This document shows, piece by piece, positions 17,669 through 28,706 of a DNA stretch of 34,893 bases; within the stretch, counting starts at the first letter, position 1; each line of letters starts with the position of its first letter. The position numbers and the translations under genes were made by a program. Source of the stretch: Nitrososphaerota archaeon (GTDB taxonomy: Archaea; Thermoproteota; EX4484-205; JAAOZO01). The notes under the pieces are model-generated. The model was not told the DNA's origin, ran no database searches, and worked only from the letters and a program-made list of their open reading frames with translations. Where the stretch lies: assembly GCA_011605715.1 (NCBI GenBank), contig JAAOZO010000171.1, positions 1 through 34,893 of the forward strand. The letters are read 5' to 3'.

Positions 17669-18109
17669 CTTTCAACCTTAACTGCTGCATAAAGCCTTTT
17701 TATTGCTTTTCTTTAGTTAAAGAGCAGAACTCTTCTTCTTTTCTGTGTTTTTTTTCAAAAATCTACGTTTCATAGACAATTGGCTTAACAATGAAAAAGA
17801 TAATTGCAGCTTTTTTAATCCAAATATCTAGGTTCATCTTTATTATTTACGATTTATAAAGAGAAAATAATAAACTAATTTTAAAAATAAAGTATGAACT
17901 AGAGTAACGTTTTCTTGCTTTGCTATATTTCAACTCTCCAAAGTGTTACTTTACAAGAAAAGCAAGAATTTTTTGGTTGATGGCCACAAAGTGAGATCTT
18001 AGAGTTATAGCCCCGTTTTTAATCAAAGTTCCATTTTTCATTTTCACCTTTTGCACTAAGGTTAAAAAAGTCGCTTGCCTTATTTACTCTTCCTTTCTTT
18101 CCCCTTTTT

Positions 18110-18922
18110 ATGGAGAAATTAGAATGTCTAGAGAATGACAGCAGCAATACTTTCTATACCGAAGAGAAAGAATTAGATAATTCTGTTTTTTCTTTCAATG
18201 ACCTCTCTTCTCATCACCTTCTGTCCCAGTACGACGTAGATGAGAAAATACGCCAATACACCCGTTTATTACTTGAAAAATTAAACTTACCTTTATCTAT
18301 GGACCTTGCTATATTTAAAACGTATTTAGAAATAAAGAAGAGCTTGCCTAAGAATAATGTAAACTCAGTAGCCTTACTGGCCTCACTGGTCGTCTTATAT
18401 TCAAAGTTTTACAACTACCCAAAAAACATAAGTGAGGTGATGGAAATAGTTAAAGATTTTGACCCAAAAATTAAAAAAGGACGTATCCTCAAATATATGT
18501 ATCTTATAAAATCTATCAATAAATCGTTTAACAATTATGTATGTCCAGTCTCTTTTATTGATATGATAATGAACAGACTTGAAGATAGAGGACTGATTTT
18601 TGTTAACCCTATGTCAAAGAAATTTGATTACAAAAGATCATTAATCTTAATCTCAAGCTACCTATTAAGCAAGCTAAAAGATAAAAATATAAGTAGTAAT
18701 CCGAGAGGCATTGCTGCTTGTTCAATTTATACTTCTAACATATTGATTGCAAAATATAAGATTTTTAAATGTAAACGCCTAACTCAAAAACATTTAGCTA
18801 TTGCTTCTAATTTAGCTGAATACACAATAAGGGAGAACTACGAAAAACATTTTTCTATGTTTGTGAAGAATCCTCCAGAAGATTTACTATTACATCTTTC
18901 TCTCCTTCTGTCTCAGAACTAA
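18110..18922 (+). CDS. Divergent TFB (TFIIB) paralog: two cyclin-like repeats, no N-terminal zinc ribbon or B-reader
   Basis: 270 aa. The second repeat PRGIAACSIYTSNILIA....LTQKHLAIASNLAEYTIRENYEKH matches the TFB core signature (P.GiAAAaiY.A....TQ.e.a....VtE.TIRnRYkE). The first repeat has SVALLASLVVLYSKFYNYPKNISEVMEIV. There is no CxxC...CxxC. Confidence 0.75.
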   Translation: MEKLECLENDSSNTFYTEEKELDNSVFSFNDLSSHHLLSQYDVDEKIRQYTRLLLEKLNLPLSMDLAIFKTYLEIKKSLPKNNVNSVALLASLVVLYSKFYNYPKNISEVMEIVKDFDPKIKKGRILKYMYLIKSINKSFNNYVCPVSFIDMIMNRLEDRGLIFVNPMSKKFDYKRSLILISSYLLSKLKDKNISSNPRGIAACSIYTSNILIAKYKIFKCKRLTQKHLAIASNLAEYTIRENYEKHFSMFVKNPPEDLLLHLSLLLSQN

Positions 18923-19319
18923 TGTAGAAGTATTGCTCTACCACTGTGATATTTATTTTATACTTTACCTGCATCATATAAGTTTCGTTACTCACCTTTA
19001 TGCTATTTATGCTAAATACATAGGTCACTCGAGTATCGTTCTTTGAAAACTTGTTTGCTACCTTATTAAAGATATCACCTACTATAGCCTGTAACTCAGA
19101 AGATTTTATCGTCTTGTTTTCAATCGAACCTATTTCTTCTTTTATCTCCCTGTCTGCACTTTGTTCATTATTTGAAACTTCATTCGTTTTTTCATTGAAT
19201 TTCTTTATGATATCAATACTTTTAAAAATGTTAGTAGCTTCTTTTACTACAAGTAGCACGATTAAAGCGTACAAAAAAGTAAATACAGTTAATGCAGGTA
19301 CAATGCCTAAAGGCTTCAT
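18855..19319 (-). CDS. N-terminally anchored (pilin-like or signal-anchor) protein, last gene of the peptidase operon
   Basis: 154 aa. MKPLG-IVPALTVFTFLYALIVLLVV hydrophobic N-terminus, then a polar, beta-rich region. The 3' end overlaps the convergent TFB-like gene by 68 nt. Confidence 0.6.
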   Translation of the reverse strand: MKPLGIVPALTVFTFLYALIVLLVVKEATNIFKSIDIIKKFNEKTNEVSNNEQSADREIKEEIGSIENKTIKSSELQAIVGDIFNKVANKFSKNDTRVTYVFSINSIKVSNETYMMQVKYKINITVVEQYFYISSETEGEKDVIVNLLEDSSQT

Positions 19320-19331
19320 TTTGCTAAGTCT

Positions 19332-19427
19332 TCAAAGTAAGATATATCCTCTTACGATGTGTTCCAAGATGAATAAAGTCAGCCACATTATCAAAGTTGC
19401 CAAACTCACATCTATCTCTTCATACAT
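19332..19427 (-). CDS. 31-aa hydrophobic sORF, a truncated paralog of the N-terminus of the 113-aa protein
   Basis: Not in the supplied track. MYEEIDVSLATLIMWLTLFILEHIVRGYILL resembles MEEIEFIGSILAWFLLCTTIGVLEMKLV (19580-19921 product). It packs tightly between neighbours. Confidence 0.4.
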   Translation of the reverse strand: MYEEIDVSLATLIMWLTLFILEHIVRGYILL

Positions 19428-19443
19428 TTTCTCACCTACTTGT

Positions 19444-19596
19444 TCATATACCTACAACCCTCTTTATAAGCTCCCCTAAAATTCTGTTTACCTCATAGTT
19501 AACCATCATGAGTCCAACCAAGTAAAATGAAAGTATTAGAACTGAAAATCCAATTTCAAGAATTCCTAGCTTACCCTTTTTAAAACTTCCTATCAA
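19444..19596 (-). CDS. 50-aa Flp-like pilin candidate (TTG start)
   Basis: Not in the supplied track. With TTG 19596: MIGSFKKGKLGILEIGFSVLILSFYLVGLMMVNYEVNRILGELIKRVVGI. It has a basic N-terminus, an L-E-I-G-F motif and a hydrophobic helix. It overlaps the upstream gene's 3' end by 17 nt. The only in-frame ATG (19509) would remove the hydrophobic segment. Confidence 0.5.
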   Translation of the reverse strand: MIGSFKKGKLGILEIGFSVLILSFYLVGLMMVNYEVNRILGELIKRVVGI

Positions 19597-19921
19597 GGAT
19601 AACTCCCTGTTCACTTATAGACACATTTACACTTCTATCAAAGAGAACAGTAACATTTTCGTAAAAAGGAGCACTTATTTGAATAGCTGACTCATTTATT
19701 TTTTCTATTTTAATAACTTCTGACCCAATTTTTGGCAGATTTATCCTGAATTCTACTTTTTTGTTTGCTCTTGTGATATAATTGATTTTTTCAAATAAAA
19801 TCTTTATCGTCTCTACTTCCTTTTTTTCATATGTAGAAACTAATTTCATTTCAAGAACTCCAATGGTCGTGCACAACAAAAACCATGCTAAGATTGAGCC
19901 AATAAACTCAATCTCTTCCAT
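19580..19921 (-). CDS. Pilin-like protein: hydrophobic N-terminal helix plus a beta-rich domain
   Basis: 113 aa. MEEIEFIGSILAWFLLCTTIGVL, then alternating beta-type sequence (VEFRINLPKIGSEVIKIEKI...VTVLFDRSVNVSI). Confidence 0.6.
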   Translation of the reverse strand: MEEIEFIGSILAWFLLCTTIGVLEMKLVSTYEKKEVETIKILFEKINYITRANKKVEFRINLPKIGSEVIKIEKINESAIQISAPFYENVTVLFDRSVNVSISEQGVILDRKF

Positions 19922-19927
19922 TTTTCA

Positions 19928-20086
19928 CTACCTTCCTAAAATTAATTTGTTTAAACTTACTTTAGCAAAAAGTTCTCCAAGTATTTTAACGATTTGAGAA
20001 AAATTTTTTGCAAAGAAATAAAGTATTAATGCTGAAATTAATCCTTCAATCATCATCGTCATCATCTTCTCCAATATCCTGCTCAT
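19928..20086 (-). CDS. 52-aa Flp-like pilin candidate
   Basis: Not in the supplied track. MSRILEKMMTMMIEGLISALILYFFAKNFSQIVKILGELFAKVSLNKLILGR. It shares I-E-G-L plus a hydrophobic helix plus ILGEL with the 19444-19596 product. It lies 5 nt after the peptidase gene and 6 nt before the next gene. Confidence 0.55.
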   Translation of the reverse strand: MSRILEKMMTMMIEGLISALILYFFAKNFSQIVKILGELFAKVSLNKLILGR

Positions 20087-20091
20087 TTTTC

Positions 20092-20682
20092 CTACAAAAA
20101 CATAGTATGTGAAAGGCTAGTTATAAGCACCAATGTTCCAAATAATGGAATAAACGGCACGTCAGACTTTTTTGATTTAACTTTTGGGAAAATTAGTGTA
20201 AAACTCCAAGTAAACGGAAGGGCAAATGTAACAATTTTAACAAGCCTTTTACTACTAGTTTTATTCTGCAGTTTTCTTAGGAAATGGATTCTAAGCAAGA
20301 GCGTGTACGTGTTCACATAAATTGGTTCTATTAGGCTAGTATCAAATTGTAAGTTCGTGGGAAATAAGCCCAACATTAGTCTTACCTTAAAAATACCTAC
20401 GCTTACTGGTTGTATAATTGCTAATGAAAACATGAAATCTGCAAATCCAGAATATCCAAGTATAAATTGAATACCTGAAATCAATGCAACCTTTAAAATA
20501 GAAAGTAAGTAGTCGAAAGTATTCTCCAATAAAATGCCTTTTATGAGTACGAGTATCAGACTTAATATAAAAAATATCACTAAAAAAATTGCAGAAACTT
20601 CTCTGTCTCTTATGTCTTCGTAGCTCATTATTATCCAAAGCAGTACCCAAATGAAAAGTAGTCCTTTTTCCAGCAACAACAT
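20092..20682 (-). CDS. Peptidase A24-family prepilin/preflagellin peptidase-like membrane protein (PibD/FlaK/TadV type)
   Basis: 196 aa, polytopic. MSYEDIRDREVS fits the first catalytic-Asp motif (y.D...r.vp). LGYSGFADFMFSL is a plausible second G-x-x-D motif. Confidence 0.7.
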   Translation of the reverse strand: MLLLEKGLLFIWVLLWIIMSYEDIRDREVSAIFLVIFFILSLILVLIKGILLENTFDYLLSILKVALISGIQFILGYSGFADFMFSLAIIQPVSVGIFKVRLMLGLFPTNLQFDTSLIEPIYVNTYTLLLRIHFLRKLQNKTSSKRLVKIVTFALPFTWSFTLIFPKVKSKKSDVPFIPLFGTLVLITSLSHTMFL

Positions 20683-20750
20683 TTTTATCCTTTTTACAAG
20701 TTTTATTTGTCCTTATAAAGGCCCACAGAGAGCTTTAAATTAGAATAAAA
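20683..20750. promoter_or_regulatory. Compact divergent promoter region between the two pilus-like operons
   Basis: 68-nt AT-rich spacer with TATA-like elements facing both ways (ccTTATAAAgg, cTTTAAATTag) at a suitable distance from both start codons. Confidence 0.4.
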
Positions 20751-20906
20751 ATGAAGCATGAGGATGCTATAATAGATGCTATAATAGACGAGATTTCAAA
20801 TTTAAAGAATGAGTTATCCATAGTAAAAAGAAGGCTTGATCTGTTACAAGGTTACATAATGAAATCTAAAGAGACTTCTCTAAATTCAGAAGAAGCTAAA
20901 AAATGA
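20751..20906 (+). CDS. 51-aa coiled-coil protein translationally coupled to the secretion ATPase
   Basis: Not in the supplied track. MKHEDAIIDAIIDEISNLKNELSIVKRRLDLLQGYIMKSKETSLNSEEAKK. ATGA overlap with the next gene. Confidence 0.5.
   Translation: MKHEDAIIDAIIDEISNLKNELSIVKRRLDLLQGYIMKSKETSLNSEEAKK
20763..20788 (+). repeat. Perfect 12-nt tandem duplication (gatgctataata x2, plus ga) inside the small coiled-coil ORF
   Basis: Read directly from the sequence. It encodes DAII-DAII. Confidence 0.9.
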
Positions 20907-22618
20907 GAATCAAAGAAATAAGAAGGTTTAAGAACCATTTATTAATTACTGTGCATGATAACTTTAATGAAAGTCTCGTAGATGAAATTCTTAACTATGT
21001 GATCTTTTATATGCGTTTTTTCAGGAATATAAGTTCTGTTGATGTAAAGTTTAATAATTACGAAGAAACTATAGTTGACAAAGCAATTTTATCTAAATGT
21101 TTAAATAAGGCGCGTCAAATTTCAAAGCTTGTTAAGACAATAGCGTTAAGATATAGAAGCAAACTCGAAGGTATTGACCTAAGTTATTTGTCAGTCTATC
21201 CGAATTTCGGTGAGCTTTATAACTTAAATAAGAATCCTAAGCAAGAAGTTCTTCTTGCTAACTCAAATTTTAGTATGGATTATGCTTGCAATGAAACTAT
21301 TGAGATTCCGAGCAGATTATACCACTTAGACGCTGTTTTAAAAGGTGGTGTGTACCACATCAAGTATAAAGATATTTTTGTAAAGAATATTTTGCTTGAT
21401 ACTTCGTATTTTCTTAGATGGGTTGTTGATGATCGTCTTCTTGAACCAAATAAGTTTAGTGATTTCATCGAATATAGGTATAAGTTTGCCATAAGGTATC
21501 TAAACAAAACCATCCAAAATCTTTCTACTCAATTAATTAGAAGTATAGCGATTCATTCTGTTTTTGTTTCAATGGGTTTACCTTCCCTTTTTCCCCTCTT
21601 TTTAGATAAAAGTATCAACGAAATCTACCTTGATGACTTAGGAAAGACGGTATATGTTGAGCATGCTGATTATGGAAGGTTGCCTACTAATATCAAACCA
21701 AGGGATAAGGAAGTTAGAGCTCTTCTTTCAGCCCTAAGAAGGAACAGTGGCCAAGAGTTAAGTCTTTCAAATCCTTCTATTAAGGGTGATCTCTCGTTTT
21801 ATAATTCTATTTTAAGAGTTTCTTTCGATTCTTTTCCTCTAGTTAACAACTTCTCCTTTGACATAAGAAAGTTGAGCAAAGAGTCAAAAAACTTATCAAG
21901 TCTTGTTCAAAGTGGTACCCTAGATAAAGTAACGGCATCTTTCCTTGTGAATTTGTTGAGAATTCGTGCCAACATTTCTATAGTTGGAGAGCCTGGAAGT
22001 GGCAAAACGACGTTACTTGCTTCAATTTTGAATTTTGTCCCCAAAAACTGGAGAGTCATAATTTTAGAGGATGTTCCGGAGATTTCTTACTCTTTCTCTG
22101 GGTCAAATTTTTGTTTAAAGCTATTTACTGATCCTTTTGAGTCTAAGACTAAAGTAAGAAAAAAGTCAGAAGAAATAGTTAAGCTACTTCACAGGAATCC
22201 AACTTATGTAGTTCTTGGTGAGTTACAGTACGAAGACCACTTCAAGTCTCTTTTTTATGCTTTATCTTCAGGGTTAAGAGTTATTCATACTTCTCACGCG
22301 CCAAGTATCGCTGGATTCATTGATAGAGTGGTAAATGTTTACAAAATTTCTAGTTCTTTAGTCTCATACCTTGATGTTGTTTTAGAAATGAAGAAAATAG
22401 AAAATGACGGTAAGGTTATACGAAGATTAAATTCTATCGGTTTTGTGAATATTTCAAGTACAGATCCTTATGAACTAAAAGTTGTAAACTTAAATAACAA
22501 TAATTCAGATACTCTAGAAGGTATTTACCAGAATTGGATCAAAATGATATTAGTAAAGAGGAACGAAACTAACTACATTAATAATTTTTGTTTTTTGCAA
22601 AATAGTGAGCTATCTTGA
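20903..22618 (+). CDS. Type II/IV secretion-family ATPase (FlaI/TadA/PilB/VirB11-like) with a long divergent N-terminal region
   Basis: 571 aa. Walker A VGEPGSGKTTLL, Asp box VIILEDVPEI, Walker B PTYVVLGELQYED, His box RVIHTSHAPS. The first roughly 350 aa have no motif I recognise. Confidence 0.8.
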   Translation: MRIKEIRRFKNHLLITVHDNFNESLVDEILNYVIFYMRFFRNISSVDVKFNNYEETIVDKAILSKCLNKARQISKLVKTIALRYRSKLEGIDLSYLSVYPNFGELYNLNKNPKQEVLLANSNFSMDYACNETIEIPSRLYHLDAVLKGGVYHIKYKDIFVKNILLDTSYFLRWVVDDRLLEPNKFSDFIEYRYKFAIRYLNKTIQNLSTQLIRSIAIHSVFVSMGLPSLFPLFLDKSINEIYLDDLGKTVYVEHADYGRLPTNIKPRDKEVRALLSALRRNSGQELSLSNPSIKGDLSFYNSILRVSFDSFPLVNNFSFDIRKLSKESKNLSSLVQSGTLDKVTASFLVNLLRIRANISIVGEPGSGKTTLLASILNFVPKNWRVIILEDVPEISYSFSGSNFCLKLFTDPFESKTKVRKKSEEIVKLLHRNPTYVVLGELQYEDHFKSLFYALSSGLRVIHTSHAPSIAGFIDRVVNVYKISSSLVSYLDVVLEMKKIENDGKVIRRLNSIGFVNISSTDPYELKVVNLNNNNSDTLEGIYQNWIKMILVKRNETNYINNFCFLQNSELS

Positions 22619-23154
22619 AAATAAATAGGCTTATCAACTTAGTACAAGGCTATCTCAAACCTATCTTTGATAAACTGAGTAACAGAAGACTAGGTCTTTC
22701 AACTTTGCAACATACGTTGTATGTATCCTATAGAATAGTTGGCGAAAATGAAATTCATGCAGCTAGACATGTACTAAAGCTTAATGATGAAAGTGCTACA
22801 TATAAAAAATTTATTTATGCTATAGGCTCTGGGCTCGATGCTGATAAATACTTAACATTAGAGCTAAACAAAACAGAGCAATACCTAAAGTTTAAGTCGA
22901 GTATTTATCAAAGGATTTCTTTTATTGAGAGCTATAATAGAAATATGTACCTGAGAAGTGTAGATAGGCTTAAAGTACTTTTAACAATATTTACTTTTTT
23001 ATCATTTATCATACCGTTTGTATTTATTTTTCTCTCTTTCTTTCTCTTCAAGAATTATGTTGACTTTTTATCTTACTTTATCCTACTTTATCCAATTTTT
23101 CTTTCATTTTTTCTTAGGTTAGCAAGAGTTGAAGATAAATATGTCATCAAATAA
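22615..23154 (+). CDS. T2SSF/TadB-like platform protein, first half of a split FlaJ/TadC
   Basis: 179 aa. TTG start in a TTGA overlap with the ATPase stop. A roughly 120-aa helical soluble region followed by two strongly hydrophobic segments. Confidence 0.55.
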   Translation: MKINRLINLVQGYLKPIFDKLSNRRLGLSTLQHTLYVSYRIVGENEIHAARHVLKLNDESATYKKFIYAIGSGLDADKYLTLELNKTEQYLKFKSSIYQRISFIESYNRNMYLRSVDRLKVLLTIFTFLSFIIPFVFIFLSFFLFKNYVDFLSYFILLYPIFLSFFLRLARVEDKYVIK

Positions 23155-23929
23155 GATCTTCGCAACAGTTATTCTTCTGCTATCTTCTGTTGTTGCTCAA
23201 ACTTTACTCAGTGGAAAGAACTTTAACATAGTTATCATCTCTTTCTTTTCGCTCCTTATTTCTTTGTTGTTAAGAAACGAAAGTCCAAAAGTTAACGTTA
23301 AAGATAGAGAAAAACTCCTTGATTACTTTTCAAGCACAATATCTAGAAGTAAAGAAGGACTTTTCCAAGAGGCATCATTTTTTAAAGATTCAAAAAATCA
23401 AAGAATTAAATATCATAAAAAGCTTGTCTACTTGGTTTCGAATGGCTTTCCAATAGAAGATGCTCTTCTGAAGAGTATTTCAGAAAGTAAAGACCCAATT
23501 CTCGTATTCGTATCAGAGCAGTTGCGCTATGGAAGAATAAGCTCTAACGAAGTTGATAAAGTGATTGGGATGTGGCTTGATAACTTAGGCTACATTCATG
23601 AAACTAATAGGCTCTTGTCTGAGTTTGAAAATAGAGTAACACTCTTAAATTACATTCTGTTTGTCTCCTTTGGCTTTATATCAGCATCGCTTAGATCCTT
23701 TGGATCTCTCATAAAAAATTCTGTAAACTATTTATTCTTTAGCAACTTGAGTTATAATATCGATGCAATAACGCTATCTCTTCTCATGTTTTCTATTTCA
23801 ATATTTACTGTTTCTTCATCTTACTTTAATCTAAGTAATAAAACTATTAAGTTTGCTACTTCTTGTTTTTTGTTTTTAGTTTCCTACCTACTTTTTGGAA
23901 TAATCTTCTTTTATGCAGGCAATCTTTGA
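23141..23929 (+). CDS. T2SSF/TadC-like platform protein, second half
   Basis: The ORF opens at TTG 23129; ATG 23141 (MSSNKIF...) overlaps the upstream stop. N-terminal TM hairpin, a cytoplasmic helical domain (LVSNGFPIEDALLKSISESKDPILVFVSEQLRYG, GspF-like) and C-terminal TM segments. Confidence 0.6.
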   Translation: MSSNKIFATVILLLSSVVAQTLLSGKNFNIVIISFFSLLISLLLRNESPKVNVKDREKLLDYFSSTISRSKEGLFQEASFFKDSKNQRIKYHKKLVYLVSNGFPIEDALLKSISESKDPILVFVSEQLRYGRISSNEVDKVIGMWLDNLGYIHETNRLLSEFENRVTLLNYILFVSFGFISASLRSFGSLIKNSVNYLFFSNLSYNIDAITLSLLMFSISIFTVSSSYFNLSNKTIKFATSCFLFLVSYLLFGIIFFYAGNL

Positions 23930-23986
23930 AAATATTGGTGCTTAAATAGCTTTAGGCCTCATTATATTTTGGAGCTGATCGAAAGT

Positions 23987-24172
23987 ATGAAAAAGCTTAG
24001 AGCTTCTCAACTAATAGAAGAAGGTCTCCTAATAGTCCTCGCCTTAGTGATGATAGGTGCTGTCTTCGGAGTATACAAATCCATAATAGACGGGATCTCA
24101 AACTTCTTTAAAAACATAGTAGATAGCATAGGTAAGGTTGCGTACGAGCTGTTTGGTTGGGCGTATCCTTAA
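23987..24172 (+). CDS. Flp-like small pilin (class III-type signal peptide candidate)
   Basis: The ORF opens at TTG 23969; ATG 23987 gives MKKLRASQLIEEGLLIVLALVMIGAVFGVYKS.... The basic leader, then S-Q-L-I-E-E-G-L-L-I, resembles the bacterial Flp G/xTxIEYGLI processing motif. Confidence 0.65.
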   Translation: MKKLRASQLIEEGLLIVLALVMIGAVFGVYKSIIDGISNFFKNIVDSIGKVAYELFGWAYP

Positions 24173-24175
24173 AAA

Positions 24176-25960
24176 TTGAAGATAAAGAATTTCTCTTTAC
24201 CAGAAGATTTTACAGTTGTTTTATCTGCTGCTATTCTTACGCTCGTCTTTGTGTTCAGCAAGTTCCCTCTACTTTTTCAACAAGGGTTCGTCGCATCTTA
24301 TAGGTTTTTATTTTTGTTTATTGTTTTCATTTCTATTTTTTCAGTTTTCTTGATGTACCAATACTTGCATCTAAATAGGTCTAACAGCAATGTAACTTAT
24401 TCTTTGCTAGAAAATGATTTGGTTTTGTTAAAATCTGACTCAAGAAAATACTTCTTGCAGCTATTTAAGTTAGAGTGTCATGACTTAAGTAAACCTAGTC
24501 AATTTGGTCAATTTTTTGATTTTCTTTATAAGTCTGGTATTAGTATAAAGTTAGTTGCAAACATTTACAACCAATCAAATAACTATCGAAATTTCGAAAT
24601 ATTCATACTCGCTTATGAAGAAATTCAAGGTGACTTTAAACAAGATTACATTCCTATAGTTGAAGAGAAATTCAATTCTCTTCTTATCGCTTCTAAAGCT
24701 TACTCCAACGTTATTAGTTTGACTAAACTAGAAGGCTCTTCTCTCTTAAATAGCTTAGACCTATACTTCCTTAACAAAAAAGAAATAAACCATAATTCAG
24801 AAGAAGAACAAAAAAATTCAGGTGAAGTTTTAGCTTCATTGTTTTTACCTTCTCCAAGTAGTGATTTTGTTAATGGCATTTCTTTTATGTCTAAAGAAAA
24901 AGATAGTGAAAGCGGAGTAATTCTCGGAGAGCAAATATATAAAGGAGAACCTTGTGGTACATTTGTCTTGCCAGTTGATTCATTATTCAAGCATTCAGTT
25001 ATAGTTGGAATAACAGGATCTGGTAAGTCAACTACAAATAAGCAAATTTTAAAGGAACTCAGCAGGCTTGGATTTCACTTTTTACTGTTTGATTTTCATG
25101 ATGAGTATGACCAAGAGTTCTCAAACTCCACTTCGTCTTACATTTTTAGATTTTCAGGAGAAGCTTCTATTGACTTTTTATCACCGTTTGAAATGAAAGA
25201 TTTTTCAAATCATGTTTCTATAGTAACTGATGTCTTTAACAACGTATACTCCTTTTCACCATCTCAATTTTTTGTTTTTCGTGATGTTTTATCCTCAGAA
25301 TTAGCTTATTCAAAAATTAATAGGGTTTCACCAACAATGAGAGGCGTAGTAGATAGACTAGAGAATTATGAGCCAAAGTCGTTTTATGAGAATGAGACAA
25401 AATTTTCGTTATTGCGAAGATTAAAGCCCCTAAGTGAAGGCGAAGGTAGTAAAATATTCGCAATTTCTAATTTGATGAAAATTGACAGTATTCTTAACAA
25501 GAATGTAATTTTAAAAGTCTCTGATATAAAAGATTCTGACTTAAGAAAGCTTACAGTTTCTCTTATACTTGCTTTAGTGTATGAGTACAGGCTGACAAAC
25601 GGGCCAGACAAAATTGGACATTTTATTTCTTTAGAGGAAGCCCAAAACTTTGTCCCGTTTAGAAACAGAACAGAAGAAGCTTCAATATATGAAAAAATGT
25701 TTTTTGAAATGAGGAAGTATAGAGAATCTCTTATTTTAATTGCTCAATTCCCTTCTCAGATTTATCCTGACTTGCTTAAGTCTTGTGAAGTTAAGGTTGT
25801 CCATAGGCTTTTTTCAGCTGGGGATGCATCCTTAATTGAAGATATATTGGGAATAGATGAAAAAATACTTGAACAACTTAAATCTTTGCCGGTAGGTCGT
25901 GTTCTCGTTTTTATTCCTTCTAGTAGAAGTCCTATTACCGTTCAGGTACGTAGGGATTAG
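24176..25960 (+). CDS. Membrane-anchored FtsK/HerA-superfamily ATPase (DUF87/HerA-, VirB4/CedB-like)
   Basis: 594 aa. TTG start 3 nt after the pilin stop. Two N-terminal TM segments (VVLSAAILTLVFVF; FLFLFIVFISIFSVFLMY). Walker A HSVIVGITGSGKSTT, HerA-like LLFDFHDEY, Walker B-like HFISLEEAQNFVP, and a LILIAQFPSQI block. Confidence 0.75.
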   Translation: MKIKNFSLPEDFTVVLSAAILTLVFVFSKFPLLFQQGFVASYRFLFLFIVFISIFSVFLMYQYLHLNRSNSNVTYSLLENDLVLLKSDSRKYFLQLFKLECHDLSKPSQFGQFFDFLYKSGISIKLVANIYNQSNNYRNFEIFILAYEEIQGDFKQDYIPIVEEKFNSLLIASKAYSNVISLTKLEGSSLLNSLDLYFLNKKEINHNSEEEQKNSGEVLASLFLPSPSSDFVNGISFMSKEKDSESGVILGEQIYKGEPCGTFVLPVDSLFKHSVIVGITGSGKSTTNKQILKELSRLGFHFLLFDFHDEYDQEFSNSTSSYIFRFSGEASIDFLSPFEMKDFSNHVSIVTDVFNNVYSFSPSQFFVFRDVLSSELAYSKINRVSPTMRGVVDRLENYEPKSFYENETKFSLLRRLKPLSEGEGSKIFAISNLMKIDSILNKNVILKVSDIKDSDLRKLTVSLILALVYEYRLTNGPDKIGHFISLEEAQNFVPFRNRTEEASIYEKMFFEMRKYRESLILIAQFPSQIYPDLLKSCEVKVVHRLFSAGDASLIEDILGIDEKILEQLKSLPVGRVLVFIPSSRSPITVQVRRD

Positions 25961-26192
25961 TTTTACTTTCTGCCAACTTATTTAAAAATTTAATTTTTTT
26001 CTCTAGTTCAACTGCGTTCATTCTTTCCATGCTTATTACATTTTTCTTCGTTACCTTATATCCACAGAAGGGGCAAATTCTATAGTGACTTTTTTCGTTT
26101 ATTCCCATAAACTTGCCACATTTAGGACATTTCACTATGAGAAATTTATCCTTCGACAACTTTAAAAAGCATATTAAGTCGTTGCTTATCAT
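25935..26192 (-). CDS. Small zinc-ribbon protein (DUF1922-like pattern)
   Basis: KFLIVKCPKCGKFMGINEKSHYRICPFCGYKV plus a helical tail. The start is ambiguous: ATG 26192 overlaps the upstream gene by 47 nt, and in-frame TTG or GTG (26135) starts lie nearer its stop. The 3' end overlaps the convergent HerA-like gene by 26 nt. Confidence 0.6.
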   Translation of the reverse strand: MISNDLICFLKLSKDKFLIVKCPKCGKFMGINEKSHYRICPFCGYKVTKKNVISMERMNAVELEKKIKFLNKLAESKTNPYVPER

Positions 26193-26733
26193 TTAAATAT
26201 TTTTTCATCCAATCGATTTTCTTTCCAGGCTTAAATTTATCCTTTATTATACCCTGCGCAATTTTCTTAGGACTTCTATTTGTAGTATCAATTTCGATTA
26301 CATCTCTCTCAAACATTTCATGTGCTTCCTGTGATATTTGATTAAGAAATTCGCTCAGTACATTTTCTTTAGTTTTTTCAATTCCATACTTCTTGAGGAT
26401 CCTCTTATACAATATCAATGGTTCACATCTTAAAACTATTACTCTTTTTGTACCCCCTCGAACTAAGTTTGCTAGCTCATAAGAATGTATCCAATCTACT
26501 GCTATGTTTGTTTGAGTTGTTCTAACTATTTTTTTCACCGTATTTCTCATCTTTTTCACTAAGACAACAAAAGAATCTGTTTTTCTGTCATACCTTGAAT
26601 ACAGTTTCTTGTCTTTTACTAACTTTCCAACGTCTAAATGAGCAAAATTAAACTTTTCTAGTTCTTTACAAAGTGTAGACTTTCCTACTCCTGGCGTACC
26701 ACTTATAAATAATACCTGTTTCTTTTGGGGCAT
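26146..26733 (-). CDS. Fap7/adenylate kinase 6-like NTPase (small-subunit ribosome maturation factor)
   Basis: 195 aa. VLFISGTPGVGKSTLCKEL P-loop, then HLDVGKLVKDKKLYSRYDRKTDSFVV, which parallels the AK6/Fap7 pattern (..NVGDLA.EE.LY.GYDEE.D..I.DE). Confidence 0.75.
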   Translation of the reverse strand: MPQKKQVLFISGTPGVGKSTLCKELEKFNFAHLDVGKLVKDKKLYSRYDRKTDSFVVLVKKMRNTVKKIVRTTQTNIAVDWIHSYELANLVRGGTKRVIVLRCEPLILYKRILKKYGIEKTKENVLSEFLNQISQEAHEMFERDVIEIDTTNRSPKKIAQGIIKDKFKPGKKIDWMKKYLNDKQRLNMLFKVVEG

Positions 26734-26798
26734 TTTAGTTTTGATTTAAAGTACCGGAAAGAAAAATATAAAAGCCTTTACTTCTAGTTTTGGTTCGT

Positions 26799-26916
26799 GC
26801 TCCGGTGATGTAGTCCGGTTATCTTAGGGCCGAAAGCATTCGAGCCTCTCGAAGAGTGCTGAAGAAAGCTCGATACCCGGGTTCAAATCTAAGCGGTGAA
26901 AATCCCGGCCGGAGCA
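26799..26916 (+). tRNA. tRNA-Glu (anticodon CUC) with three introns: D-loop (about 14 nt, 26822-26835), canonical 37/38 (15 nt, 26852-26866) and T-loop/T-stem junction (15 nt, 26889-26903)
   Basis: Hand fold: acceptor GCTCCGG/CCGGAGC, D stem ATGT/GCAT, D loop AGTCCGGTTA, anticodon stem CGAGC/GCTCG with loop CTCTCG..A (CTC at 26848-26850, pairing with intron AGAG), T arm CCGGG-TTCAAAT-[intron]-CCCGG. The 118-nt gene reduces to 74 nt. Exact intron borders are ambiguous by 1-2 nt. Confidence 0.8.
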
Positions 26917-26943
26917 CTTCTGTTTTAATACCTAAAAAGGCTC

Positions 26944-26951
26944 TTTTTTTT
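26944..26951 (+). terminator. Oligo-T tract downstream of tRNA-Glu (candidate archaeal terminator)
   Basis: A run of eight T's 28 nt after the tRNA 3' end. Archaeal RNA polymerase commonly terminates at T-runs. Confidence 0.3.
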
Positions 26952-27062
26952 AATGTCAGTGAAACTTGCGAATTTTCGCTCTTAATGACTTCCCAAGACT
27001 TTCTTTGTAGAGAACCTTCTAGAAAGATAAGTGAAAAAAATAAAATACTAAAAACTAAAAAT

Positions 27063-28706
27063 TTATCGCCTTTCTGCTCCCTTTTCTTTCTTTTCAGGCA
27101 ACTTTAGTGTTAAGAACATATCGTCTACTCTTAGTAGTGTCGAAGCAAGTTCTGTAGCTACATTCAGCATAAGCTTTACAGATTTTATCGGTTCAATTAT
27201 TCCAGCTTCTTCAACGTCTACTACCTTTCTGCTAAGCGCATCTATTCCAAACAACTTGTCCTTGGTCTTAACGTTCTTGGCTCTTAAGTCACCTATAGTT
27301 TTTGTTACAGGCATGCCACTGTTTTCTACTATTGCTCCAGCTAGGTCAAACAGTGCTTCTGAAAATCCTTCTATTACTAGACTTATTTCTCCTCCTTTTT
27401 GCATTCCATAGTCTTTAAGTGCGACAGCCATGCCAACTATGTCTGCTACGCCACTTGGTACGTATTTCTCATCTTCATAGAAGTTCGCAACACATTGTAA
27501 CCCTTTCTTAACTACCCTTTCGTATTCCTTAGTTAGCTCCTTACTGACTCCTCTTATTAGTATACTTACTGATTTACTTTTCTTTACATCTTCTACGACA
27601 ACTACTTTTTCCGTAGCTTCGTACTTCCTTTCCTCTACTAAGTTTGCTTCTCCAAGCGTTTTTTCGGAGATGTCGGTATAGTCGCTAACTATTCTTGCTC
27701 CCGTCGCTTCTGCAAGCTTTTCTAAGTCCGATCTCTTTGCATTCTTTACTGCTAGTACTCCCGCTTTTGCAAGCGCTGCAGCGGCTTTATCATCTATCGC
27801 TTTTTGAGAAATAAGTACGTTAGCTCCACTTTGTATTATTTTTTCAACTTTTTCGGTTACAGATCTTCTTTCTTCTTCTTTTAGCTTTAGGATTTCTTCT
27901 GGACTTTTAAATTCTAGTTCAGAAGAAATTTCTGTCTTTTTAACTTCCAAAGGAAAGTCTATAAGAGCTATTCTCGCTCCCGTTATCCTTTTAGGCATAT
28001 TTGGATGCGCAACCTCTTTATCTATAATTATTCCATTTATGAAACTTGTCTCAAAAGCAGAGCCACCTGTTTTGCTGACTATTGCAACATCGTCTATGTC
28101 TATCTTCTTCTTTCCATTAACTTCACGGGTCACTAGTTTTGCTGCCTGGAGTATTGCGTTTACTACATTCTCATAGTATGCTAGTTCTGACCTACCTATA
28201 GAGGGTAGTACTACTGTCCTAATCATGTTCTTTAATACTGTATCATATTCTTCAAGTCTTGGCTTTTTAGAAATGCTTTCTATATACTCATTTAAGAATT
28301 TTCTTGCTTCTTCATATCCTAGAGCTATTGTTGTAGGATGTATTCCCTTTTTGTAGTACGTTACTCCTGTTTCGATTAACTTAGAAGCCAAATAAATCAT
28401 TCTGTTTGTTCCATCCCCAACCATTTTGTCTAGGTTTTTAGCAGCTTCGATGTAAAGCTTTCCAACTGGATGTTCAATGTTTGCTTCAGAGAGAATCGTT
28501 ACTCCGTTCTTTGTATAAGTTATATCCCCAAAGCTTCCTACCAACATTTTGTTAAAACCTGAAGGTCCTAGCGCCGTTTTAGTTATTTCTTCTAATACTA
28601 TACTAACAGTTAAAGTGTTAGCTAATGCCTCATCCCCCGTTCTTCTAGCAACATTTTCTTTCATAACATAAACAGGCTGCCCACTAGCCTCCACAGGAAT
28701 CGCCAT
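27063..28706 (-). CDS. ths: Thermosome subunit (group II chaperonin)
   Basis: 547 aa. TLGPSGFNKMLV, GDGTN, VSKTGGSA, ISQKAIDD.A...LAKAGVLAV, VVVEDVK..KSVSILIRG, and EPIKSVKLMLNVATELASTLLRVDD. Confidence 0.95.
   Translation of the reverse strand: MAIPVEASGQPVYVMKENVARRTGDEALANTLTVSIVLEEITKTALGPSGFNKMLVGSFGDITYTKNGVTILSEANIEHPVGKLYIEAAKNLDKMVGDGTNRMIYLASKLIETGVTYYKKGIHPTTIALGYEEARKFLNEYIESISKKPRLEEYDTVLKNMIRTVVLPSIGRSELAYYENVVNAILQAAKLVTREVNGKKKIDIDDVAIVSKTGGSAFETSFINGIIIDKEVAHPNMPKRITGARIALIDFPLEVKKTEISSELEFKSPEEILKLKEEERRSVTEKVEKIIQSGANVLISQKAIDDKAAAALAKAGVLAVKNAKRSDLEKLAEATGARIVSDYTDISEKTLGEANLVEERKYEATEKVVVVEDVKKSKSVSILIRGVSKELTKEYERVVKKGLQCVANFYEDEKYVPSGVADIVGMAVALKDYGMQKGGEISLVIEGFSEALFDLAGAIVENSGMPVTKTIGDLRAKNVKTKDKLFGIDALSRKVVDVEEAGIIEPIKSVKLMLNVATELASTLLRVDDMFLTLKLPEKKEKGAERR

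Follow-up and report, generated by a model that had tools for sequence, protein, structure and literature searches.

The closest described relatives of the system considered here are the bacterial Flp/Fap pili (Tad, type IVc; Caulobacter PilA, PDB 8u1k, PF04964), the EppA-dependent (Epd) pili of Methanococcus maripaludis (MMP1685, DUF361), the Ups pili and Ced system of the Sulfolobales (UpsE/F/A/B/C, CedA/A1/A2/B/D/E and TFB3), and the type IV pilus (T4P)-like systems of the Thermoproteales (Makarova et al. 2016). Short pilins and a split platform are regarded as hallmarks of the Epd-like plus Tad clade (Denise et al., PMC6668835), and the Epd pilins of Methanococcus are short and carry a glutamate at position +5, but lack the Flp motif and its tyrosine at +6 (PMC3875500). 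In the Sulfolobales, DNA import requires the membrane-bound HerA-clade ATPase CedD, which TFB3 regulates jointly with the Ups type IV pili (PMC11823120, PMC11868833). Several type IV-like systems of TACK archaea have been described without a recognisable pilin, clade 4D being an example (Makarova et al. 2016). Here we describe a locus in a 34,893-nt stretch of DNA from a Nitrososphaerota archaeon (contig JAAOZO010000171.1 of assembly GCA_011605715.1; this whole stretch is referred to as the window, and coordinates are window positions unless a homologous locus, denoted by an L number, is named). The product of a 61-codon gene in it is most likely a subunit of the type IV-pilin kind that carries a class III signal peptide, and the locus contains the parts of a complete T4P-like system: probable peptidase, major pilin, candidate minor pilins, ATPase and platform (Table 1). 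We think it likely that the 61-residue product is a mini-pilin that forms the major subunit of a TACK-specific T4P-like system, is cleaved by an A24 peptidase after Ala6, and is probably coupled to a CedD-like translocase.

A family of probable short prepilins in Brockarchaeota and Bathyarchaeia

The prepilin gene runs from an ATG at 23987 to a TAA at 24170-24172, exactly as given in an earlier note made from the sequence of this DNA, and its 61-residue product is MKKLRASQLIEEGLLIVLALVMIGAVFGVYKSIIDGISNFFKNIVDSIGKVAYELFGWAYP. An in-frame TTG at 23969 is a possible start as well and would add six residues, but the GGAG at 23971-23974 speaks for the ATG. The open reading frame (ORF) is a real gene under strong purifying selection, with a ratio of nonsynonymous to synonymous divergence (dN/dS) of ~0.02. 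Comparison with L010 gives a dN of 0.024 and a dS of 1.04, such that synonymous change is near saturation and the protein barely altered, and comparison with L009, a metagenome-assembled genome (MAG) contig labelled Nitrososphaera sp., gives a dN of 0 and a dS of 0.27. The window prepilin is 98% identical to that of L009 and 95% identical to one from a Candidatus Brockarchaeota MAG.

Across 5.8 billion clustered proteins and 185,579 species genomes, the family was met in Brockarchaeota and Bathyarchaeia only. There are 15 close homologues, together with remoter ones recovered by exhaustive profile search, and 30 loci lie in species-representative genomes; the family statistics that follow are for 42 distinct prepilin sequences, all from these two groups. 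The family is absent from Pfam and NCBIfam, and the literature open to search yielded no account of it. One MAG contains two full copies of the locus (TFB, ATPase, platforms, pilin and CedD-like ATPase) on contigs CAZXBW010000012.1 (L011) and CAZXBW010000017.1 (L012), with pilins 68% and 70% identical to that of the window; either the locus is truly duplicated or two strains have been placed in one bin.

The 42 prepilins share the N-terminal motif [KRS]-[AG]/[STA]-Q-L-[IVL]-E-E-[GA]-L-L, where the slash marks the predicted cleavage site from which positions are numbered. E+5, E+6 and L+9 are invariant, and Q+2 and L+8 are each present in 41 of the 42. Position -1 is alanine in 24, glycine in 17 and cysteine in one, and the exchange of alanine and glycine between close relatives is what is expected of the -1 site of a prepilin peptidase. 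The leaders are not conserved and range from ~5 to ~35 residues, the longest occurring in the remoter homologues from metagenome searches, whose placed relatives are Bathyarchaeia; at the other end of the protein, an LFGW..P motif is conserved. A cut before the glutamine would put S, T, A or V at -1 and is less likely; the E+5 position is satisfied in either register. Ser+1 is unusual for a class III signal, but the archaeal class III layout (a short charged leader, [KR] at -2, [GA] at -1 and ~20 hydrophobic residues) is otherwise present across the family.

The layout given in the earlier note, with a basic leader and a small residue ahead of x-x-[IL]-E-x-G-[LF] and a hydrophobic helix, is borne out, with leucine as the last residue of the motif; the note had also held that the argument would fail were the motif not conserved, and the motif is kept in all orthologues. 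Its further statement that the pattern differs from the usual archaeal [KR]G/[AQ] was wrong, since with lysine or arginine at -2 in 30/42 and alanine or glycine at -1 in 41/42 the motif fits the archaeal class III rule too. Hydropathy analysis reveals a single hydrophobic segment (residues 9-30 of the prepilin), and residues 31-58 form a strongly amphipathic helix (mean hydropathy 0.35, hydrophobic moment about 2). AlphaFold2, run with the family alignment, predicts one helix spanning residues 2-56 with a mean predicted local distance difference test (pLDDT) score of 93.

The assembly ATPase, platform and candidate peptidase

An assembly ATPase of the T2SSE/FlaI type is encoded upstream of the prepilin in 29/30 genome loci. 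In the window protein, the PDB matches are to FlaI (1.7e-24), Archaeoglobus fulgidus GspE (afGspE, 2.9e-24), CpaF (2e-8) and VirB11 (3.5e-8), and the NCBIfam matches are to FlaI (1.7e-28), VirB11 (1.3e-19), the TadA family (6.9e-19), TrbB (9e-16) and BasE (5.9e-14). The bit scores of about 90 for FlaI and afGspE and 37 for CpaF are similarity scores alone and not a clade placement, and tblastn against plasmids is undiscriminating, with scores of 57-71 bits for CpaF, TrbB and generic ATPases alike.

Exactly two ORFs separate the ATPase and prepilin genes in nearly every locus examined, and both encode diverged membrane proteins. T2SSF is matched by six of the 25 positional orthologues of platform protein A (best E 1.6e-7) and by eight of the 26 of platform protein B (best E 1.2e-6), and is the top family in both sets; the two proteins are weakly paralogous (hhalign 74%, E 2.7e-5). 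Because T2SSF is found in orthologues of both membrane proteins and the two-ORF layout is maintained, we conclude, as was suggested earlier, that the platform is a split one, made up of two proteins with a single T2SSF domain apiece. The prepilin is thus encoded with a T2SSE ATPase and a T2SSF platform, the latter recognised through its orthologues and sub-threshold in the window copies. The T4P-like systems of the Thermoproteales, compared here by their published description, are also TACK systems with fast-evolving parts; clade 4B has two TadC genes, and clade 4D has a TFIIB paralogue beside its ATPase. However, clade 4D has one membrane protein only and no recognised pilin, and a CedD-like ATPase has not been described for either clade (Makarova et al. 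2016).

A divergent operon begins with a gene for a 196-residue protein that had been proposed to be the prepilin peptidase, and which is a plausible A24 (GxGD-type) enzyme in view of the matches of its orthologues and their invariant aspartates. The window protein itself matches Pfam Peptidase_A24 with an E-value of 0.44 and 11.5 bits, against a gathering score of 26.5 bits. The positional orthologues in L036 (2e-5, 25.4 bits), L035 (3.6e-5, 24.6 bits), L030 (1.1e-3, 19.9 bits) and L013 (6.9e-3, 17.3 bits) all likewise score below the gathering value, and A24 is the sole or top Pfam family in five positional orthologues. The orthologues are 18-25% identical and share invariant E22, D23, G76, A81, D82, P176, I178 and P179, with G79 nearly so. 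Asp23 and Asp82 (the latter in G-F-A-D) are candidate catalytic residues; we take D23, GxAD82 and the C-terminal P-F-I-P to correspond to the two catalytic aspartates (D and GxGD-like) and the PF.P element of this protease class. A profile search of PDB with the peptidase found nothing, its alignment recovered 12 family members only, with no bridge to annotated A24 proteins, and a tblastn search of plasmids with an orthologue gave only three weak unannotated matches. The N-terminus of the putative peptidase of the window, MLLLEKGLL, with glutamate at position 5, echoes the IEEGLL of the pilin; the EKGLL stretch is partly kept in L009 and gone from L010 and the remoter orthologues, and may be due to chance.

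Four small ORFs follow the peptidase gene, and each of their products has one N-terminal hydrophobic (transmembrane, TM) helix. The family of the 52-residue protein starts with M-S-x-L-[LIV]-E-K-x-L across loci and has its glutamate at +5, in register with the main pilin. Members of this family have the initiator methionine as their whole leader and might need its removal alone and no prepilin peptidase. Other members are encoded at L014 5761-5970, L016 6272-6421, L035 4296-4694 and L038 6746-7111; that of L038, a Bathyarchaeia-type locus, begins MVM-AELLEY, with E+5 and Y+6 as in Flp.

Relationship to Flp and Epd pilins

The system resembles the Flp/Fap pili in its very short mature subunit (55 aa here and 45 aa in Flp), in the small -1 residue, hydrophobic +3/+4, Glu+5, Gly+7, Leu+8 and Ile/Leu+9 in the same register, in the short candidate peptidase without a methyltransferase domain, and in the ATPase gene followed by two single-T2SSF platform genes. 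It differs in having a conserved Gln+2, an invariant Glu+6 where the Flp motif G/xxxxEY has tyrosine (never found at this position in the family), a longer amphipathic C-terminal half with the LFGW motif, a FlaI-like and not CpaF-like ATPase, no TadZ or secretin, and an archaeal host.

Searches with family models and single sequences did not detect the resemblance. The window prepilin has no match to PF04964 or PF04021 in Pfam at E<=1, and 21 family members have none to the Pfam Flp, Class_IIIsignal, TadE or PF04021 models at E<=10, so that the Flp model to which the earlier note had pointed is without a match. No Flp gene was found by tblastn of the prepilin against plasmids, and BLASTP against Caulobacter PilA (the sequence of which was verified against PDB 8u1k) gave no alignment.

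Profile-to-profile comparison does align the two. Using hhalign, the prepilin family and an alignment of collected PF04964 proteins, which is of low diversity (Caulobacter-like), match with a probability of 58%, an E-value of 9.7e-5 and a score of 28.5 over 56 columns. The register is exact, pairing A/G(-1) with G(-1) and aligning I+4, E+5, G+7 and L+8. The reversed Flp profile scores 18.0, 200 whole-column shuffles score 9.3 +/- 1.9 (maximum 15.9), and 200 shuffles that keep the leader, hydrophobic and tail blocks score 11.0 +/- 2.5 (maximum 19.8). Compared with single sequences, the family aligns best with Flp (32.5%), followed in the same register by a T4a geopilin (6.8%), with PAK pilin and VirB2 (for both, a query sequence not taken from a database record) near zero. 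The parallel to the Flp motif drawn in the earlier note therefore stands as to register, which is exact, with a score beyond all 400 shuffles, but not as to a Pfam Flp match or the residue at +6. The Flp resemblance is real but limited; it reflects the common logic of a short type IV pilin (small -1, E+5, G+7-L+8), and may represent either deep homology or convergence.

The Epd pili offer a second comparison: their major pilin is archaeal and very short (62 aa mature), with a class III leader of 5-13 aa and Glu+5 conserved, and their pilus genes come with a dedicated peptidase gene and two platform genes (PMC3875500, PMC6668835). Where Epd pilins have Gly-1 and Gln+1, here Gln+2 follows Ala/Gly-Ser, and the QxSxExxxL pattern of PF04021 is not found in the prepilin family. 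The host is a TACK archaeon and not a euryarchaeon, and a CedD-like ATPase stands in place of the FlaH/KaiC-type protein.

These likenesses raise the possibility that the system belongs within the Epd-like/Tad clade and that its Flp-like motif was inherited from an archaeal ancestor of bacterial Tad pili and is not convergent, which we regard as tenable but doubtful. It would account for an in-register profile alignment well above the controls, for a mature pilin of only 55 aa, and for two contiguous single-T2SSF genes beside the ATPase in the order tadA-tadB-tadC, and Epd pilins likewise have E+5 (PMC3875500). Against it, the ATPase scores 90 bits to FlaI/afGspE and 37 to CpaF, with the plasmid CpaF, TrbB and generic ATPases equidistant; there is no TadZ/FlaH-type ATPase, nor any of the ParA/MinD type, in the locus; and of the Tad machinery (CpaF/TadA, TadZ, TadB and TadC) the locus has the pair of single-T2SSF platform proteins. 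The pilin lacks Y+6, has its glutamine at +2 and not +1, and matches neither PF04964 nor PF04021; the hhalign probability is only 58%; and split platforms or two TadC-like genes also occur outside the Epd clade, in Thermoproteales clade 4B and euryarchaeal clade 2 (PMC4858521).

Linkage to a CedD-like ATPase and a TFB-like gene

The gene immediately downstream of the prepilin, which the earlier note did not connect with it, encodes a membrane-anchored HerA-clade ATPase; in the window the gene starts 3 nt past the prepilin stop, and in L016 the two genes overlap by the stop codon. Among NCBIfam families the ATPase is matched best by CedD (NF053655, 'DNA-translocating ATPase CedD'; 8.2e-47, 160 bits, ATPase domain only), more than 30 orders of magnitude ahead of HerA, the next (1.8e-13). 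The PDB matches are HerA-like, and the N-terminal 260 residues have no family match. A CedD-like ATPase gene is present downstream of the prepilin in every locus long enough to show it, and the order ATPase - platform A - platform B - pilin - CedD-like ATPase is found in 29/30 genome loci as well as in metagenomic contigs. This order spans 31-60% GC, the metagenomic contigs being 35-60% GC with pilins 28-37% identical to that of the window. Brockarchaeota encode the CedD-like ATPase as one TM and ATPase protein, and Bathyarchaeia-type loci have two ORFs in its place, one for the TM/N-terminal part and one for the ATPase. Examples of the split genes are at L005 8196-10099 and L033 10132-12620, where the TM/N-terminal ORF is about 220-320 aa.

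Many loci of both lineages, Bathyarchaeia included, have a TFB/TFIIB-like gene upstream, and TFIIB paralogues have been noted beside archaeal T4P loci (Makarova et al., PMC4858521). In the window, L009 and L010 the product has 270 aa and lacks a Zn ribbon, and in orthologues elsewhere it has 314-363 aa and a weak Zn_Ribbon_TF match; the short copy is either a truncated regulator or the result of a missed upstream start. A mobile or conjugative element was considered as an origin for the locus and rejected: the flanks are housekeeping genes (PAC2, Lsm, thermosome, S17e) that are syntenic across genomes, which makes this a chromosomal system and not a mobile element.

Given the CedD-like ATPase directly after the pilin and, in many loci, the upstream TFB paralogue, a coupling of the filament to nucleic-acid translocation is probable, and the arrangement suggests a pilus coupled to DNA transfer. 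If so, the roles of the Sulfolobales Ups pili and Ced system would be merged in one operon. The parallel to those systems lies in the functional linkage of a T4P-type machine, a membrane-bound CedD-type ATPase and a TFB paralogue. In the Sulfolobales, however, these are separate loci, whereas here they form one cluster (two divergent operons and the TFB-like gene); the Ced pilin is VirB2-like, whereas here the pilin is T4P-like and the locus has no CedA/VirB6-like channel.

Proposed assembly and alternative explanations

From the motif and hydropathy of the prepilin and by analogy to known T4P, we propose that the prepilin enters the membrane by way of its single hydrophobic helix, and that a GxGD-type A24 aspartyl peptidase, for which the 196-aa protein is the candidate, would cut the basic leader between Ala/Gly(-1) and Ser(+1) to leave a 55-residue mature pilin beginning S-Q-L-I-E(+5)-E-G-L-L. 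The FlaI-like hexameric ATPase and the two single-T2SSF platform proteins would then pull subunits from the membrane and polymerise them, with the hydrophobic N-terminal halves as the filament core and the amphipathic C-terminal halves as its surface. As in bacterial T4P, Glu+5 may neutralise the N-terminus of the adjacent subunit; candidates for minor pilins are the products of the four small ORFs that follow the peptidase gene. In the least certain step, the filament would be coupled to nucleic-acid translocation, in DNA uptake or exchange.

Several points weigh against a mini-pilin that is cleaved, assembled and coupled in this way. Sequence and profile searches of Pfam, NCBIfam and PDB with the prepilin return no pilin family, and Foldseek with its single-helix AlphaFold2 model gives zero matches, as is expected for a lone helix. 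Ser+1 is presumably outside the set of +1 residues used by FlaFind, and leader removal after Ala6 and assembly into a filament are predictions. The window copies of platform proteins A and B have no Pfam match, and these and the window peptidase fall below every curated threshold and are assigned through their orthologues. The AlphaFold2 model of the peptidase is poor (pLDDT 51), and in a fold search FlaK ranked 7th with a non-significant E of 6, yet with the best TM-score (0.38-0.40). At 160 bits, the CedD match falls far short of the 600 set as the equivalog cutoff, and it covers model positions 218-526 only. Finally, much of the gene linkage is seen in lineages with shared flanking synteny, and it is thus partly inherited and not independently maintained.

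A non-filament role has also to be weighed: the 61-residue protein might stay uncleaved, span the membrane once and act as a partner of the CedD-like ATPase or the platform, perhaps as an anchor or assembly factor like VirB3. The tight coupling to the CedD-like gene, whether by the 3-nt gap of the window or the overlap of L016, would suit such a partner, as would the lack of any pilin family model that matches the prepilins; moreover, Ced pili have never been seen in the Sulfolobales, where pseudo-pili are suspected (PMC11823120). Nevertheless, a conserved small -1 residue and an invariant E+5, in register with a second small family, are hard to explain for an anchor, and a probable A24 peptidase and a complete T4P assembly module are encoded alongside. 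The Bathyarchaeia ATPase, having its own TM/N-terminal ORF, does not need the pilin as its anchor, and we consider this role unlikely.

Least probable of all, and in our judgement very unlikely, is a VirB2/CedA1/TedC-type conjugative pilin of a Ced/Ted-like machine derived from a type IV secretion system, with the T2SSE ATPase as VirB11 and the DUF87 ATPase as VirB4/VirD4: the adjacent CedD-like ATPase, the VirB11 (1e-19) and TrbB (9e-16) matches of the T2SSE ATPase, the VirB2/TraA propilin-like leaders of up to ~35 residues in remote homologues, and the precedent of CedA1 and TedC as small helical pilins without mutual sequence similarity (PMC9905601) fit it, but the prepilin has one hydrophobic helix and a charged amphipathic second half and is modelled as a straight helix and not a two-helix hairpin, the [KR][AG]/ E+5 class III signature is foreign to VirB2, hhalign gives 1.3% and no motif alignment to VirB2 (the query sequence noted above), the polytopic neighbours match T2SSF and A24 and not a VirB6/CedA-like channel partner, and the assembly ATPase is far closer to FlaI than to VirB11.

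Other features of the locus

The features of the locus are listed in Table 1. The window is AT-rich (31-36% GC); GC content is 0.31-0.325 over the pilus locus (18000-26000) and 0.33-0.37 in the flanks, and the locus is chromosomal and syntenic across genomes. Small coiled-coil proteins are encoded immediately upstream of the ATPase, overlapping its start, with one ORF in Brockarchaeota and one or two in Bathyarchaeia loci; there are two in L005 (4463-5100), L033 (5955-6694) and L037. They have no family match. The zinc-ribbon gene that overlaps the 3' end of the CedD-like gene is conserved in position in both Brockarchaeota and Bathyarchaeia loci (L002, L033, L034).

No Rfam family was found at the gathering score in 23000-27200. 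A tRNA-like sequence in that stretch, called neither by ARAGORN nor by Rfam at the gathering threshold, is probably a tRNA gene interrupted by at least one non-canonical intron, as is common in Thermoproteota. The same element follows an adenylate-kinase-like gene in L016.

Table 1. Features of the pilus locus in the window; slashes and hyphens within N-terminal sequences mark predicted processing sites.
Feature	Positions	Strand	Size	Evidence or remarks
TFB/TFIIB-like paralogue, candidate regulator	18110..18922	+	270 aa	NCBIfam TFIIB 2e-4; window copy without Zn ribbon
Pilin-like protein	18855..19319	-	154 aa	N-terminus MKPLG/IVPALTVF..., class III-like
Pilin-like protein	19444..19614	-	56 aa	..KKGKLGILEIGFSVLIL..
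Pilin-like protein	19580..19921	-	113 aa	N-terminus MEEIEFIGSILAWFLL; positional orthologues in Brockarchaeota and Bathyarchaeia
Small pilin-like protein	19928..20086	-	52 aa	N-terminus M-SRILEK...; E+5 after Met removal, hydrophobic helix
Probable A24 (GxGD-type) prepilin peptidase	20092..20682	-	196 aa	6 TM helices; A24 matches of orthologues
Small coiled-coil protein	20751..20906	+	51 aa	Overlaps ATPase start; conserved upstream of ATPase
Assembly ATPase, T2SSE/FlaI type	20903..22618	+	571 aa	Pfam T2SSE 1.2e-16
Platform protein A, diverged single T2SSF domain	22615..23154	+	179 aa	Positional orthologues
Platform protein B, diverged single T2SSF domain	23129..23929	+	266 aa	Positional orthologues
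Prepilin gene	23987..24172	+	61 aa	Predicted mature pilin 55 aa
Predicted class III leader MKKLRA	23987..24004	+		Predicted cleavage Ala6/Ser7 (24004/24005); Glu at +5 and +6
Membrane-anchored HerA-clade ATPase, CedD-like	24176..25960	+	594 aa	2 N-terminal TM helices; Pfam DUF87 1.7e-13
Zinc-ribbon protein	25935..26192	-		A2L_zn_ribbon 5e-6, weak DUF1922
tRNA-like sequence	26800..26917	+		Acceptor GCTCCGG...CCGGAGCA; interrupted T-arm (GGTTCAAATC ... TCCCGG)

Implications

Pilin genes as short as the present one, with its 61 codons, are easily overlooked. For two archaeal groups that are poorly known and for the most part uncultivated, the prepilin family supplies a candidate pilin, a predicted cleavage motif and a probable peptidase of its own. 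The presence of E+5, G+7 and L+8 in a TACK archaeon carries the Flp-like pilin layout past the Epd pili of Methanococcus, and provides a fresh data point on the proposed archaeal origin of bacterial Tad pili. A bolder proposal, to which we give rather little credence, is that Brockarchaeota and Bathyarchaeia possess a hybrid machine in which a Flp-like mini-pilin, type IV ATPase, split platform and peptidase are combined with a CedD-type translocase and TFB paralogue for DNA uptake or exchange from a single locus, with a pilin that might retain the ancestral N-terminal layout behind bacterial Flp pilins; if true, it would be a functional analogue of bacterial competence pili plus a translocase. 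The most interesting aspect is the conserved joining of a T4P module with a CedD-like ATPase. To our knowledge, such DNA-exchange functions are known only from Sulfolobales, Desulfurococcales and Thermoproteales, and the coupling of a CedD-like ATPase and a TFB paralogue to these pilus genes suggests that they may exist in other architecture elsewhere in Thermoproteota.

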